The notes under the pieces are model-generated. The model was not told the DNA's origin and made no database searches. It saw only the letters and a program-made list of their open reading frames with translations. Of a DNA stretch of 43,798 nucleotides, positions 9,292 through 43,798 are shown one piece after another. Both the position numbers and the translations under genes were made by a program. The DNA is taken from the IMG/VR virus record IMGVR_UViG_3300024996_000142, positions 1-43,798 of that record; one strand, given 5' to 3'. Positions within the stretch are counted from its first letter, which is position 1; each line of letters begins with the position of its first letter. Source of the stretch: a virus (taxonomy: Duplodnaviria > Caudoviricetes).

Positions 9292-9953
9292 GGCCGCCCC
9301 TTGGTGCGCGCCGCCTCGATGCGCGACGTAGCGACTTCCAGCAGCATCTGGTACTCGTGCTGGATGCGCCCGTCGTGTTTCTCAGCGCTGGCGGCCAAGA
9401 ACTCGGCAACGGTGCCTCGAAAGCCGCCGCGCGTCACTTCAAGCGTGTTGTTCTTGGTGTTGTAGACCGACAGCGTGCCATTTTCAGAGCCGACATGACT
9501 GAACCAGCAGATGAGGCCGTCGCCGGAGACCCACGCGTCGCCGGAGACCCACGCGTCGCCGAAGACCTGCGCGTCGCCGGAGACCTGCGCGTCGCCGGAG
9601 ACCCGCGCGTCGCCGGAGACCCGCGCGTCGCCGAAGACCTGCGCGTCGCCGGAGACCCGCGCGTTGCCGAAGACCTGCGCGTCGCCGGAGACCCACGCGT
9701 TGCCGAAGACCTGCGCGTCGCCGAAGACCTGCGCGTCGCCGGAGACCTGCGCGTCGCCGGAGACCCACGCGTTGCCGGAGACCTGCGCGAGGTTGTTTTC
9801 ATTTTCGACATAGCCCCCGAGGGTCCCCGGTGTTATGCCGAGGGCAGCGATGGCATCCAGTGCGCGGATGCGCTTGCCGGTGCGCCCTGGGGCGATGGTG
9901 ATCTCATCGCCGGGGACGAACTCCCAGCGGTTTTGCTGCACGGGGGCGGTCAT
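9288..9953 (-). CDS. Hexapeptide-repeat (G[DN]A[QWR]V[SF]) beta-helix protein
   Basis: RIRAL...G.LGGYVENENNL N-terminus, 14 tandem hexapeptides, C-terminal GF.GTVAEFL domain. Confidence 0.85.
   Translation of the reverse strand: MTAPVQQNRWEFVPGDEITIAPGRTGKRIRALDAIAALGITPGTLGGYVENENNLAQVSGNAWVSGDAQVSGDAQVFGDAQVFGNAWVSGDAQVFGNARVSGDAQVFGDARVSGDARVSGDAQVSGDAQVFGDAWVSGDAWVSGDGLICWFSHVGSENGTLSVYNTKNNTLEVTRGGFRGTVAEFLAASAEKHDGRIQHEYQMLLEVATSRIEAARTKGRP
9520..9790. repeat. Intragenic 18-bp tandem repeat, 14 full units plus partial flanks
   Basis: Minus-strand unit GGC RAC GCG (CAG/TGG/CGG) GTC TYC. Confidence 0.95.
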
Positions 9954-39279: not shown

Positions 39280-39989
39280 ACATCGCCAACTTGCTGCAAG
39301 ACGCTGGTGTGCCGCCGACGCTATGGCCTGAGGCGCAGGCGTGTCTAGACCGCGCGCTTGAGACCACCGGCGGCACGCTGGGCGCGATGACCTGGCGCAA
39401 GCATTTCGTCAGGTTCTTCAGGGCGGGGAAGATCGCCAAGATGCTCCCGTGGACGGCAAACCGTCTACTCGATGTTGATCCTGATCTTGCAGCCTGGGAC
39501 ATTGCCCCCATGCTGAACATCACGAGCAACGGCGATAACGGCGCGTGGGTCAGTACGCCGGACGGCGGCAGGCCGATCCAGGATAGCTGGCTTGACCCTG
39601 ATCCGACGAGTGCCGATTACCGCGCGGCGGTGGATGCCTGCTACTGGGCGCCCGGCCACCACCCGCGCTCACCCGAGGCACGGAAAGCGTGGTACCGCCG
39701 CAATGCCTGCGAGTACGCGGCGTGGGATCGAGGCTCGCCCGTGGGTGCGACGGCGATGGAGTGGTCTGGCAACGGCATCACGGTGCTACGCAGCGGCCCG
39801 GCGTGGCACATCTTCGGCGTCGTACCGTGGCTCGGGCCGCTCAAGATGAAGGTCGACATCGGCTACGCGGTCGGCAACGTCTTCGGCGTGGTCGGCGGCC
39901 GTCGCGTGCAGTGCTGGTACCCCTTGCCGAGCCACGAGCTGCGGGCTTGTGTGGTGTGGGTGCGCCATCCAACATGGAGCAAAGCATGA
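39276..39989 (+). CDS. Hypothetical Trp-rich protein
   Basis: 237-aa ORF with ATGA overlaps on both sides. Confidence 0.7.
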   Translation: MNIANLLQDAGVPPTLWPEAQACLDRALETTGGTLGAMTWRKHFVRFFRAGKIAKMLPWTANRLLDVDPDLAAWDIAPMLNITSNGDNGAWVSTPDGGRPIQDSWLDPDPTSADYRAAVDACYWAPGHHPRSPEARKAWYRRNACEYAAWDRGSPVGATAMEWSGNGITVLRSGPAWHIFGVVPWLGPLKMKVDIGYAVGNVFGVVGGRRVQCWYPLPSHELRACVVWVRHPTWSKA

Positions 39990-40342
39990 GTGTGACTCGC
40001 GAAGCCGCTGAAGCCACCATCGCCGCCGCCGCGCCGAAGATCACGGTTGCGGGAGTTGCGACGATGGGCGCTGGCTGGCTGACCTTGGACAGCCTGGTGA
40101 CGATCATCGGCGTACTGGTTGCCATGGTGGGTGGTTGGGCCACGGTGTACTTCAAACTTCGAGGCGACCGGCGCGCGGAAGCCAAGCGCTATGAAGAGCA
40201 CGAGGAGCACGCGCGCCGCATGGAGTTCTGGGATCAGTGCATCGCCGCAGGCGGCGCGATTTCACCGGCCATGGCGCAGCGTGCGCAAGACCTGGGCATC
40301 GCGTTGCGCGAGAGTGACGTCGCGAAGGATGAAGAGTCATGA
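39986..40342 (+). CDS. Holin (probable pinholin)
   Basis: Two hydrophobic segments then a charged tail; immediately upstream of the endolysin; start reassigned. Confidence 0.75.
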   Translation: MSVTREAAEATIAAAAPKITVAGVATMGAGWLTLDSLVTIIGVLVAMVGGWATVYFKLRGDRRAEAKRYEEHEEHARRMEFWDQCIAAGGAISPAMAQRAQDLGIALRESDVAKDEES

Positions 40343-40848
40343 CTTCACCTCGCATGCTTGTCGCATCTCTGAGCGCCGCCGGTCTGATCGGCATTGCCAT
40401 CTTCGAGGGCTACGCGCCCGTGGCCACGCCGCCCGTGCCCGGCGATGTGCCCACGGCTGGCTTTGGCAGCACACGCAGCGAGACCGGCCCCATGCGCGCT
40501 GGCGAGCGTGTTGACCCCGTGCGCGGCCTGATCCTGCTGGCGCGCGACGCGAGCGAGGCAGAGCGCATCGTGCAGCGCTGCGCGCCGGTGCCAATGTACC
40601 AGCGCGAGTTCGACGCCTACGTGAGCCTGGCCTACAACATCGGGCCAGGCCGGGCGGGCGTGAAAGATGGCTTCTGCGTGCTCAAGAGCGGCCAGCCCTC
40701 CACGCTCGTGCGTCGCCTGCTGGCGGGCGACTACGCGGGCGCGTGCGCTGAGATTTTGAGCTGGGACAAGTTCAAGGGCAAGCCGCTGCGGGGCTTGACC
40801 AACCGGCGCCAAGACGAGTATCGGCGCTGCATGGGAGAGTCGCAATGA
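40339..40848 (+). CDS. GH24 lysozyme, probable SAR endolysin
   Basis: Weakly hydrophobic N-terminus, FEG..GDVPTAGFG, AYNIG and GLTNRR motifs. Confidence 0.9.
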   Translation: MTSPRMLVASLSAAGLIGIAIFEGYAPVATPPVPGDVPTAGFGSTRSETGPMRAGERVDPVRGLILLARDASEAERIVQRCAPVPMYQREFDAYVSLAYNIGPGRAGVKDGFCVLKSGQPSTLVRRLLAGDYAGACAEILSWDKFKGKPLRGLTNRRQDEYRRCMGESQ

Positions 40849-40958
40849 CCCTCGTCCGCCTTCTGGCGACGTTGACCGGCTATGTCGTCTGGCTCATGTT
40901 CTGGCTTGGCGCTTTTGGTTTCGCGCACTTTGAGTTGATTTTCAAAGGGGTGCAGTGA
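40845..40958 (+). CDS. Small hydrophobic protein (37 aa) within the lysis cassette
   Basis: MTLVRLLATLTGYVVWLMFWLGAFGFAHFELIFKGVQ; ATGA and TGATG coupling on both sides. Confidence 0.55.
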   Translation: MTLVRLLATLTGYVVWLMFWLGAFGFAHFELIFKGVQ

Positions 40959-41515
40959 TGTTGACCTGGCTGCGCGCGAACCTCATGACCGGCCTGTCGC
41001 TGGTACTCATCGTGCTGCTGGGTTTGCAGACTTGGCGCCTGCACAGCGAGCAACTGGCGCACCGCGACTTGCAAGTGAGCGTCGAACGAGACCGGCAGAC
41101 ACGCACCGCCGCCGCGCTCAAGGCCGTCAATGACAACACGACCAAGCAAGAGACCCACGCAACCGCTTCACAGGAGAACGCCAGTGACTTGCTCGAAACA
41201 CTTTCCCGGCAGCGCGACGTTGCTCTCGTTGCTGCTGCTCGCGCTGAGCGGCTGCGCCTCGATGAGTCCCGCAGAGCCGCCACTTACCGTGCCATGTCCG
41301 AAGCCGGGGCCGCTGCCTGCCGCGATCTCGCGCATCGGGCTACAGCCCTCGACGAACGTCTTGCAGAAGGCGTCGGCGTGGTCGCTGAACTCAGAAGCGT
41401 TGTTGAACGCAGAGATGCCGAAGTCAGAGCCTTGAGGGGGCAGATTGATGCAGACAGGGCCCTTTTTGGGCAACCGGGCCCGCCGGATGCGGGCGTCGAT
41501 GAAAGGCAACCATGA
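40958..41515 (+). CDS. Rz: i-spanin (Rz-like)
   Basis: N-terminal TM segment plus periplasmic coiled coil, after the endolysin. Confidence 0.8.
   Translation: MLTWLRANLMTGLSLVLIVLLGLQTWRLHSEQLAHRDLQVSVERDRQTRTAAALKAVNDNTTKQETHATASQENASDLLETLSRQRDVALVAAARAERLRLDESRRAATYRAMSEAGAAACRDLAHRATALDERLAEGVGVVAELRSVVERRDAEVRALRGQIDADRALFGQPGPPDAGVDERQP
41184..41435 (+). CDS. Rz1: o-spanin lipoprotein (Rz1-like), embedded in Rz in the +1 frame
   Basis: AGGAG RBS, GTG start, LLSLLLLALSGC lipobox, Pro-rich mature part. Confidence 0.8.
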   Translation: MTCSKHFPGSATLLSLLLLALSGCASMSPAEPPLTVPCPKPGPLPAAISRIGLQPSTNVLQKASAWSLNSEALLNAEMPKSEP

Positions 41516-42099
41516 ACAAAATCTACGAAGGCACAAAACGCCTGTACGCCAAGCCCATGACTCGTGGCGAATACAACGCATATCGCGGCTGGGAGGTGCC
41601 CGCCGACGAGAACCCTGCTGATGACGGCTATCTCGTCGAGTACGTGGACGGTGGCAAGGCCAACGATTCGCGGCACGCGGGGTACATCTCGTGGTCGCCC
41701 AAGGACGTGTTCGAGCGCAGTTACAAGCCGGTGCAGTGCGATCCCGTAGGCTCGCTGGAGCGCGAGATTCAGGCCAAAGCCAACGTGGCGCCGCGCGTGA
41801 CGCCGCAGGACATTGAGGCCGAGATTGCCAGCGAGTTCTATTTCACCGCCGCCGATGGCGTGCGCGGCGAATCCGAGATGGGCACCAGTCCGGCGGGCCG
41901 CGCCAAGTCGCTGGAACTGCTGACCTTCTGCGTTTTGGTGCTGAAAAATGGTTTCACCGTCACCGGCGAATCGGCATGCGTCAGCCCGGAGAACTTCAGC
42001 GCCGAGATCGGCCGCAAGGTTGCCCGGCAGAAAGCCGTCGAGAAAATCTGGCCGTTGCTGGGCTTTCGGTTGCGCGATCGGCTGACGGATCGGGGATAA
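41512..42099 (+). CDS. Two-domain protein with C-terminal N4 gp49/Sf6 gp66-family domain; candidate anti-defence sponge
   Basis: N-terminal YEGTK..A.PMTRGEYN.YRGW..GYLVEY..YISWSPKDVFE; C-terminal APRVTP...TFCVLVLKNGFTVTGESACVSPENF.AEIG. Confidence 0.8.
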   Translation: MNKIYEGTKRLYAKPMTRGEYNAYRGWEVPADENPADDGYLVEYVDGGKANDSRHAGYISWSPKDVFERSYKPVQCDPVGSLEREIQAKANVAPRVTPQDIEAEIASEFYFTAADGVRGESEMGTSPAGRAKSLELLTFCVLVLKNGFTVTGESACVSPENFSAEIGRKVARQKAVEKIWPLLGFRLRDRLTDRG

Positions 42100-42111
42100 A
42101 CCGGGGATAAA
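42090..42111 (+). repeat. Tandem CGGGGATA repeats (11-bp period), probable integrase arm-type sites, right end
   Basis: tcggggataaaccggggataaa; matches 22-45. Confidence 0.7.
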
Positions 42112-42190
42112 ACGCAGCAATCCACAGTAGCTCACGGGTGCTGTTCCCTGTGGGAGATGCCTGTTGGTTGCTTTTGGTTCCCTAATCGGC

Positions 42191-42217
42191 TGGGTTCGAG
42201 CCCCATCAGCCACCCCA
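42191..42217 (+). other. attR core: 3' fragment of a tRNA, most likely tRNA-His
   Basis: TGGG-TTCGAGC-CCCA T-arm followed by TCAGCCACCCCA acceptor strand ending CCA; no D or anticodon arm upstream. Confidence 0.8.
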
Positions 42218-42235
42218 TAAATGCTAAGTCTGCTG

Positions 42236-42475
42236 CTACATAGTTTGTAGCCGTGGGAAATTTAAAGGCCTCCGTGGGAAATCGCGGGGGCTTTTTTCAT
42301 AGAGACTTCCGCTTGGAAACCCGGCTGCGCTCGTACACGCGGGTGGTTGTTGCCGGGTCGGTTTGCCGCCGATGGGGTGGTAGCGGTAGGTGATGGTCTT
42401 GCCGTTGCGCCACGGCCGCGCTTCCATGAGCGGCAGCAAGCCCTGGGCGCTGGCGCGTTCGCGCTTGGGTGGCAT
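42236..42475 (-). pseudogene. Truncated integrase remnant of a second element
   Basis: MPPKRERASAQGLLPLMEARPWRNGKTITYRYHPIGGKP resembles an integrase arm-binding N-terminus; no catalytic domain; CCGTGGGAAAT repeated at 42251 and 42272. Confidence 0.6.
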
Positions 42476-42888
42476 TTCAAGTGCCCCAGTTCAATCAGTT
42501 GTTGGTAGCAGTCTGGTCCTGGCGTTCGTTAGGATCCAGGCGACGCAGCATATCGTGCGTGATGTGTTTCCAATGTGTCGTCGATGACGCTCCACCAGTG
42601 AATGCCGATTTCCTCGATCTGGCTTAACACATCGAAGGCGGTGATCGGGTTGGAGGTTGGTTCGATTGTTCCAGCGCTGGACTGCTGAGGGGCGGAAGCA
42701 ATCGTCTGGCTCCCTTCAGCCTGGATTGCCGGTGCGGGTGCGAGTGTTGTGGAGTCTGTTTCCTTGTGAGAAGGGTTGCGGGTCAAGAGATCACACGGTT
42801 GGCGCCGTGTGGGTTCGGACGTCGGGCTGGCAGTTGACGCTGCCAGTCCGAAGTTTTTTTGGCTGAGGGCCTGTCAAATCACACAGAT

Positions 42889-42934
42889 TCGTACATACGA
42901 TTTGCTTGCCTTGATCCCTGATCGTATGCACAAT
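42889..42934 (+). promoter_or_regulatory. brnTA promoter and putative operator
   Basis: Palindrome TCGTACATACGA (42889-900) and degenerate copy TCGTATGCACAA (42922-33); TTGCCT-N17-CACAAT-N6-GTG. Confidence 0.6.
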
Positions 42935-42940
42935 TAACCC

Positions 42941-43219
42941 GTGCTGATCGAATTCGATCCTGTCAAGAACGAGAGAAACATCGCCGGTCGCGGACTGTCG
43001 TTCGAGCGGGCGGCCGAGTTTGATTTCAGCAGCGCCATCGTTGGTGTGGATGACCGCAAGGTCTACCCGGAGGTGCGTTATGTGGCTGCTGGCTACCTGG
43101 ACCAGCGCTTGCACATGCTCTGCTTCACTCCGATCGAAGGTGGCATTCGTGTGATCAGCTTTCGCAGGGCGAACAGCCGGGAGGTCAAGGCATATGAGCA
43201 AGCGCGCACCACTGATTGA
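42941..43219 (+). CDS. brnT: BrnT family toxin (RNase)
   Basis: IEFDPVKNERN..RGLSF..A..F...Y.EVRY...RVISFRRAN.RE. Confidence 0.92.
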   Translation: MLIEFDPVKNERNIAGRGLSFERAAEFDFSSAIVGVDDRKVYPEVRYVAAGYLDQRLHMLCFTPIEGGIRVISFRRANSREVKAYEQARTTD

Positions 43220-43472
43220 TGCGGACGGCGAGGTTCGCGAACTCACGGCAGAGGACTTGGCCAAGTTCCGGCCTGCCCATGAGGTGCTGCCGTTGGCGCT
43301 GCAGGAGACGCTGGGTATCCGTCGGCGCGGCCCGCAAAAGACACCCACCAAAGTGTCAACCACGATCCGGTTGTCTCCGGAGGTGGTCGAGTTCTTCCGC
43401 AGCACCGGGGAGGGCTGGCAGTCGCGCATGGATGGCGTGCTGCGCAAGTACGTGGCGCAGCATTCGCGTTGA
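43194..43472 (+). CDS. brnA: BrnA family antitoxin
   Basis: RGPQKTPTKVSTTIRLSPEVVEFFRSTGEGWQSRMDGVLR. Confidence 0.92.
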   Translation: MSKRAPLIDADGEVRELTAEDLAKFRPAHEVLPLALQETLGIRRRGPQKTPTKVSTTIRLSPEVVEFFRSTGEGWQSRMDGVLRKYVAQHSR

Positions 43473-43576
43473 GTGGAGGCTTGCATCACGCCCAGCCTCC
43501 GGCGATGAGGTTGCGCAGGATGGCGGGGCTCTCGATGAAATCTTCGGCGTCGCACTTCTCCATGTGCTCCAGCACG

Positions 43577-43798
43577 GTCAACCCCGAATGGAGCGCACCC
43601 GAAGTGGCCCGCGCACTGCGGGCTGATCAATTGCCCGCGCCGCTGCGCGCCAAACTGGGCGGACGTCCCAAGGCAGCGGCCACCAAGGAAGCCGTCAAGT
43701 TGCGCCTCGATCCCGACTTGCTGGTCGTGCTGCGCGCCACCGGTGACGGCTGGCAAACCCGCGTCAACCGCATCCTGCGCGAGCGGTTTGCGCTGTAA
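43577..43798 (+). pseudogene. Second, orphan BrnA-like antitoxin, probably 5'-truncated (ORF track start 43469)
   Basis: NPEWS...GGRPKAAATKEAVKLRLDPDLL..LRATGDGWQTRVNRILR; N-terminal part of the ORF looks unrelated. Confidence 0.65.

Follow-up and report, generated by a model that had tools for sequence, protein, structure and literature searches.

The last gene before the right attachment site (attR) of the 43.8-kb provirus analysed here raises the question of whether one small phage protein carries one counter-defence activity or two. The initial annotation, made from the sequence alone, had described a fused two-domain protein after the lysis cassette and had proposed that each domain might sequester a different immune signal. 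The fused protein is real. The Acb4 identity of its C-terminal half and the fused-sponge design are already published, and the lead is the N-terminal domain, here called domain X. The window, meaning the whole stretch of 43,798 nucleotides, has an integrase gene at 1-1149, and the terminase, head, tail and fibre genes lie on the plus strand upstream of the lysis genes and the fusion gene. The features of the right end are the following:

39986 to 40342, plus strand: holin, PF16082 (Pfam and PHROG matches)
40339 to 40848, plus strand: endolysin, phage lysozyme PF00959 (Pfam and PHROG matches)
40955 to 41515, plus strand: Rz-like spanin (phrog_6197, E 1.2e-28), its TGA within the ATGA overlap
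41512 to 42099, plus strand: X-Acb4 fusion gene, 195 aa (ORF list, translation, homologues)
41512 to 41736, plus strand: domain X, residues 1-75 (PHROG, AF2, homology to the N-terminal domains of N4 gp49 and RyR Tad)
41746 to 42096, plus strand: Acb4 domain, residues 79-195 (Pfam, phmmer, Foldseek, AF2)
41797 to 42081, plus strand: PF13876 core, residues 96-190 (Pfam profile)
42191 to 42217, plus strand: attR core, the tRNA-His 3' end (96% over 27 nt to the BPP-1 attachment site)

The ATG of the fusion gene (41512-41514) overlaps the TGA of the Rz-like spanin (41513-41515) as ATGA, and an AAGG lies 5 nt upstream of it; the coupling to Rz was thus correctly described. The position as last gene before attR also holds, since no plus-strand ORF of at least 40 aa starts between the fusion stop (42099) and 42191. 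Lying behind plus-strand structural and lysis genes, the gene is probably expressed late, together with the lysis genes, and no sigma-70-like promoter was found in 40900-43000. Full-length homologues of the fusion protein are 53-81% identical to it. A database protein of 122 aa (P0038) begins at residue 74, a GTG codon, spans 41731-42099 and comprises the Acb4 half only; this start, which lacks a clear ribosome-binding site, is either an alternative gene call or an internal one. Within Rz, in another frame, an ORF at 41130-41435 (plus strand) has a lipobox-like LLLLALSGC and is a candidate Rz1/o-spanin, with no PHROG match at 1e-5.

The two-domain anatomy was confirmed by separate PHROG matches, which fall in the N-terminal part (phrog_872, phrog_32732 and phrog_18865) and at residues 82-193 (phrog_322), and by the full-length AF2 model (mean pLDDT 90.8, pTM 0.57), in which confidence dips at residues 71-90, around the junction placed near residue 75 at first sight. 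The low pTM and the dip are expected for two independently placed domains. All motifs quoted earlier for the two halves are present in the translation: GTK..A.PM at residues 7-16, GYLVEY at 39-44, YISWSPKDVFE at 58-68 and FCVLVLKNGFTVTGESACVSPENF at 139-162. Searches of NCBIfam and PADLOC with the whole protein returned no family.

The assignment of the C-terminal half to the Acb4 family, made in the initial annotation, was corroborated by profile, sequence and structure. PF13876, which corresponds to the Acb4 family (Chang et al., 10.1101/2024.12.30.630793), is matched over positions 1-81 of its 82 with an E value of 4.6e-32 and 110.8 bits against a curated cut-off of 27. With phmmer, this half matches SPO1 Acb4 (9E4W, E 0.0034), and in Foldseek with the full-length model ranks 1-10 are all 9E4W (probability 1.0, E 0.002-0.007, TM by target 0.63-0.70). 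Like 9E4W, the AF2 model of the half shows a three-stranded sheet flanked by helices, those at the N-terminal side and a long one at the C-terminal side. Its sequence is 41% identical to gp48 of coliphage N4 over 100 aa, and the query and gp48 share a longer insert, while the query differs from these Acb4 proteins in carrying domain X. Among the SPO1 ligand contacts K36, F48, E49, V56, Y57, F62, N63, I66, T70 and K81, three of ten are identical in the query (F148, F162 and I166). The residues K36, E49, Y57, T70 and K81 are replaced, the K36 position having been mapped by ungapped extension, and N4 gp48 departs from SPO1 Acb4 at the same five polar positions. Since these residues are not kept, the specificity of the query probably follows that of the Gram-negative Acb4 members, which are reported to bind 3'3'-c-di-AMP in addition to the 3'3'-cGAMP bound by all eight homologues tested (Chang et al.). 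Expression of N4 gp48 has been reported to trigger Panoptes, gp48 acting as a sponge in Panoptes assays (PMC12657230). Taken together, family and fold make it very probable that the Acb4 half works as a sponge; the few SPO1 contacts kept and the weak cGAMP binding reported for the Acb4-Sequestin fusion count against it. Proteins with the X-Acb4 layout are already within the published table of Acb4 homologues (Chang et al.), where the SWSP motif of X has 52 matches, and the two such rows shown are X-Acb4 proteins from Clostridia.

Two sponges in one polypeptide have precedents. The Acb4-Tad2 fusion of Pasteurella phage Pm86 is reported to block CBASS as well as type I Thoeris (Tal et al., 10.1101/2025.07.12.664507). 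The same two activities are reported for an Acb4-Sequestin fusion, gp59 of Pseudomonas phage Ab09. Like the query, both join Acb4 to a second small module, but in them both halves are characterised sponges, whereas the second half of the query is a candidate only. The dual-sponge idea of the initial annotation is the leading reading and is partly supported, in its Acb4 half, with ligand binding by X as its hypothetical part.

By sequence, domain X falls outside the known sponge families. It had no match to PDB sequences when searched alone and two non-significant ones as a profile, and among 55 members compared with Pfam no family was common to more than two and none matched PF11195. The hhalign probabilities were 0.3% for Tad2, 0.5% for Sequestin and 0.2% for Acb4. 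Nor was there a profile match to Sequestin (PF21825) or Acb2/Tad1 (PF24729), which are an all-helical hairpin while X is mainly beta. In the AF2 model of X (76 residues, pLDDT 93.6) a helix is inserted into a small beta barrel similar to SH3 and Tudor folds. The nearest structural neighbours of this model are all weak: DUF1653 (Z 5.0, rmsd 2.7, 57 residues aligned), the RNA-polymerase-interaction domains of CarD and Mfd (Z 4.7) and, lower, Tudor and SH3 domains. In Foldseek, SPO1 Tad2 chains occupy ranks 1-4 of 350,542 chains with non-significant scores (E 0.59-1.2, TM 0.30-0.34), and a single Atlas row aligns X with a part labelled PF11195 at TM 0.78. The Tad2 chains were among the Foldseek candidates that were re-aligned, yet are absent from the 50 VIA-align entries listed; a shared fold is still compatible with this. 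When the sponge families were set aside, the named Atlas clusters gave one unnamed match to X, at 0.79. No Pfam or profile link to Tad2, Sequestin or Acb4 backs the proposed binding of a nucleotide signal by the N-terminal domain, and no solved sponge resembles that domain clearly in structure.

The sequence of X is strongly conserved. Across 349 copies, conservation is 90% or higher at 30 of 76 positions, and K9, R18, Y21, N22, R25, W27, S60 and W61 are near-invariant; R18, Y21, N22, R25 and W27 reach 95-99% in these 349 copies of the query's subfamily. Within the same proteins the conservation of X exceeds that of its partner (0.59 vs 0.32 for Tad2, 0.57 vs 0.30 for Sequestin), a comparison biased by the choice of proteins through their similarity to X. 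With 11 K/R, 12 D/E and a pI of 5.7, X is near neutral. It has 75 aa, occurs in phages and is also found as a stand-alone protein, and so shows the trait of the sponge class of being smaller than about 100 aa.

Homologues of X are abundant, and those sampled are mostly fused to a sponge. The X profile matched 2,608 of 1.84 billion representatives (50% identity clusters, E <=0.001). X occurs from Proteobacteria to Clostridia. A sponge Pfam domain is present in 82 of the best 150 representatives (78 above the curated cut-offs and 4 below): Sequestin in 39, Tad2 in 33, Acb4 in 12 and the Acb2/Tad1 hairpin in 6, with 8 carrying two. Five more of the best 150 cluster together, and one of them matches a solved Tad1 (E 8e-16). 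Using our own HMMs, built partly from the same 150 proteins, 92 have a sponge partner, 8 are X alone and 50 have other or truncated extensions; X is N-terminal to the sponge in 87 of the 92 fusions. The IMG/VR viral loci gave 576 confirmed matches, and in the best 80 of these a known sponge is fused in 77 (Tad2 51, Sequestin 12, Tad1/Acb2-type 13, Acb4 2, one of them having two), X is alone in two and the partner is unknown in one; after 90% de-duplication the fused share is 47/50. The earlier remark that this domain is often fused to Tad2 (DUF2829) proved right for 51 of those best 80 loci. Longer X homologues number 1,246 and short ones 127, and 113 of the 120 longer homologues listed, the query included, have a sponge Pfam domain. 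These partner samples are biased towards sequences close to the query.

The partners also change readily. Copies of X at least 85% identical to that of the query occur in eight different architectures, and on a weakly resolved X tree (111 of 225 de-duplicated copies, with a few noisy labels from our own HMMs) the partner labels need 53 changes, against a minimum of 5 and 62 when shuffled. X is attached to at least five known, structurally unrelated sponge families, namely Tad2, Sequestin, Acb4, Tad1 and RyR Tad. Many X proteins are of stand-alone size (72-85 aa), an Atlas cluster of 78 aa has 114 members, and in one viral locus (L007) an intact 77-aa X ORF with no sponge neighbour lies between ORFs that, on reading their translations, are terminase-like and portal-like. 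Further partners of X include WDGH (PF25311), a nucleotide pyrophosphohydrolase, a Mu Gam-like domain and small unnamed domains (P0281, P0324, P0350/P0364 and P0292/P0333); by the logic of fusion, these are candidate counter-defence modules. Some X-containing phage genes are labelled 'Anti-CRISPR protein', a label that was given no weight.

Two relatives of known layout are N4 gp49 and RyR Tad. In coliphage N4, gp49 is an X-Tad2 protein whose X is 51% identical to that of the query; it adjoins the Acb4 protein gp48, and its X is fused to Tad2 and not to Acb4. The second is RyR Tad, gp68 of Pectobacterium phage CB1, which has the same layout as the query, with an X homologue ahead of the sponge domain, but whose own sponge is a gcADPR binder with RyR repeats, unlike Acb4. 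Its N-terminal domain is aligned to X by hhalign with 96.6% probability (E 6.6e-10) and by BLAST with 35% identity over 66 aa, and both match phrog_18865. These matches indicate that the two are homologous, a link newly drawn here; the accessible text of the RyR Tad paper does not connect this domain with other sponge families, and presents it as a fold whose function is not known, frequently an ORF by itself, whose dimer in the crystal is swapped at strand beta1 (Fedorova et al., 10.64898/2026.06.04.730250). In the same work the gcADPR pocket lies in the C-terminal domain, gp68_C alone is active, and gp68_N (residues 1-86), tried by itself against type I Thoeris, 'had no apparent activity'. 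The sole tested homologue of X thus speaks against signal binding, and among the results it weighs most against a second sponge. The test is limited in scope to one defence system and a divergent copy: the X of RyR Tad is without R18, Y21, N22, R25 and W27, and the motifs YNxYRGW and GGKxN are missing from it.

The explanation that we favour, tentatively and with slightly less than an even chance for the whole, is that of an Acb4 sponge against CBASS joined to X as a second signal-binding module. The Acb4 domain would assemble into a tetramer and sequester the cyclic dinucleotides of CBASS late in infection, when the gene would be expressed together with the lysis genes; both the tetramer and the binding of cGAMP, cUA and c-di-AMP are predicted from family members. 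X would be an independent counter-defence module binding a different immune signal, presumably other than that of type I Thoeris, in pockets at the interface of its own dimer, as suggested by the crystal of the divergent RyR Tad homologue. Candidate pocket residues are the near-invariant K9, R18, Y21, N22, R25, W27, S60 and W61. Fusion to many unrelated sponges points to X as a sponge by guilt by fusion, the reasoning through which Sequestin was discovered, and the stand-alone X genes and the conserved arginine and aromatic residues tip the balance towards X acting in its own right. The odds of X being a second sponge are brought below even by its bias to the N-terminal position, its near-neutral charge and the gp68_N result. 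Sponge pockets are positively charged and X is not, and X is alone in only two of the best 80 of 576 viral loci whereas Sequestin is mostly stand-alone; both count against X as a sponge. That X itself binds a signal we therefore regard as nearly, but not quite, an even bet. That it founds a large unnamed sponge family, perhaps for a signal with no known sponge or one still undiscovered, is a little more doubtful than the reading as a whole.

A less likely explanation, though the one that survives best among the alternatives, is a single-function Acb4 sponge in which X dimerises or stabilises, so that any sponge attached to it gains in avidity, expression or stability. The strand-swapped dimer and the inactivity of gp68_N alone fit such a role, as do the N-terminal position in 87 of 92 fusions, the indifference to the partner and the scarcity of X alone in the best 80 viral loci. 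The partners, however, oligomerise and work without X, since SPO1 Acb4 is reported to form a tetramer without it (Chang et al.) and gp68_C is active by itself. A pure scaffold also leaves unexplained both the intact stand-alone X of L007, which has no sponge neighbour, and the strong conservation of Arg, Tyr and Trp.

Rather less probable again is that X, as an SH3/Tudor-like barrel, binds a protein, either inhibiting a sensor, synthase or effector or docking the sponge near the source of the signal. Many SH3/Tudor-like folds bind proteins, and the closest structural neighbours of X are DUF1653, CarD/Mfd and Tudor/SH3 domains, although Z values of at most 5 indicate no more than a common barrel. 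Protein binding would account for the stand-alone copies and the near-neutral charge, and has a precedent in Tad3-Tad8, which are reported to be protein-binding inhibitors (PMC13728456). A single conserved protein target is not obvious, since X occurs on sponges against both CBASS and Thoeris and from Proteobacteria to Clostridia.

It is very improbable that X represents a Tad2-like domain that has diverged strongly, making the protein a cryptic Tad2-Acb4 fusion: the Foldseek ranks 1-4 of SPO1 Tad2 and the Atlas row would agree with it, but those Foldseek scores are non-significant, PF11195 is matched by 0/55 members, hhalign gives 0.3%, and the commonest partner of X is a real Tad2 domain. 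Equally remote is a role of X in shielding the phage from decoy-signal systems set off by sponges, such as Panoptes, which would explain its attachment to any sponge given that Acb4 triggers Panoptes, but N4 encodes X in gp49 and is nevertheless reported to be Panoptes-sensitive through gp48 (PMC12657230), and X is also fused to the gcADPR binders Sequestin and RyR Tad.

Sequestin was found by querying Pfam families for fusion partners and is described as mostly stand-alone (Tal et al.); X has no Pfam model and would have been missed by such mining. The SWSP motif has 291 matches in the Sequestin table of Tal et al. and two in the Lockin table, the rows shown being X-like by eye, and their screen table of 126 rows has no SWSP or GYLV match, motif searches of it having yielded no X member. 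An X-Tad2 protein is entered under 'known homolog' (Hadary et al.), and X is not one of the seven sponge families in the accessible text of a review of October 2026. In the open literature, bioRxiv supplements and subscription papers aside, no paper devoted to X was found, the N-terminal domain of RyR Tad being its sole mention. If X binds a signal, it would be a major addition to the sponge families and could be used to fish for new immune nucleotides; as a scaffold or docking module, it would be an accessory common to sponge families, of which we found no description. Its presence in gp49 of coliphage N4 makes it readily testable and a cheap experimental lead.

The ends of the prophage were also analysed, and one further feature overlaps the fusion gene:

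42091 to 42109, plus strand: tandem CGGGGATA pair, overlapping the fusion stop codon, with a twin pair at 23-41

Pairs of CGGGGATA spaced 11 bp at both prophage ends give 4 matches against 0.40 expected, and none of 100 shuffles scored as high; they are likely arm-type sites of the integrase. A 13-bp repeat at 33-45 and 42090-42102 was considered as the att core and rejected, because 42191-42217 matches the BPP-1 attachment site and the repeat is a tandem pair at each prophage end. No whole tRNA was reported by ARAGORN, and Rfam gave no significant match at 42050-42400. After the tRNA-His 3' end, a hairpin followed by a T run (about 42265-42298) looks like a terminator. Just outside attR, a 79-aa ORF at 42236-42475 (minus strand) has a motif that we take to be that of an integrase N-terminus; it has no PHROG match at 1e-5 and may be what is left of an earlier element at this tRNA. 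Also outside attR, a BrnT/BrnA toxin-antitoxin pair lies within 42941-43798, and the ORF after it resembles, by eye, a second BrnA. Elsewhere in the window, an 18-bp unit is repeated in about 15 tandem copies at 9464-9843.
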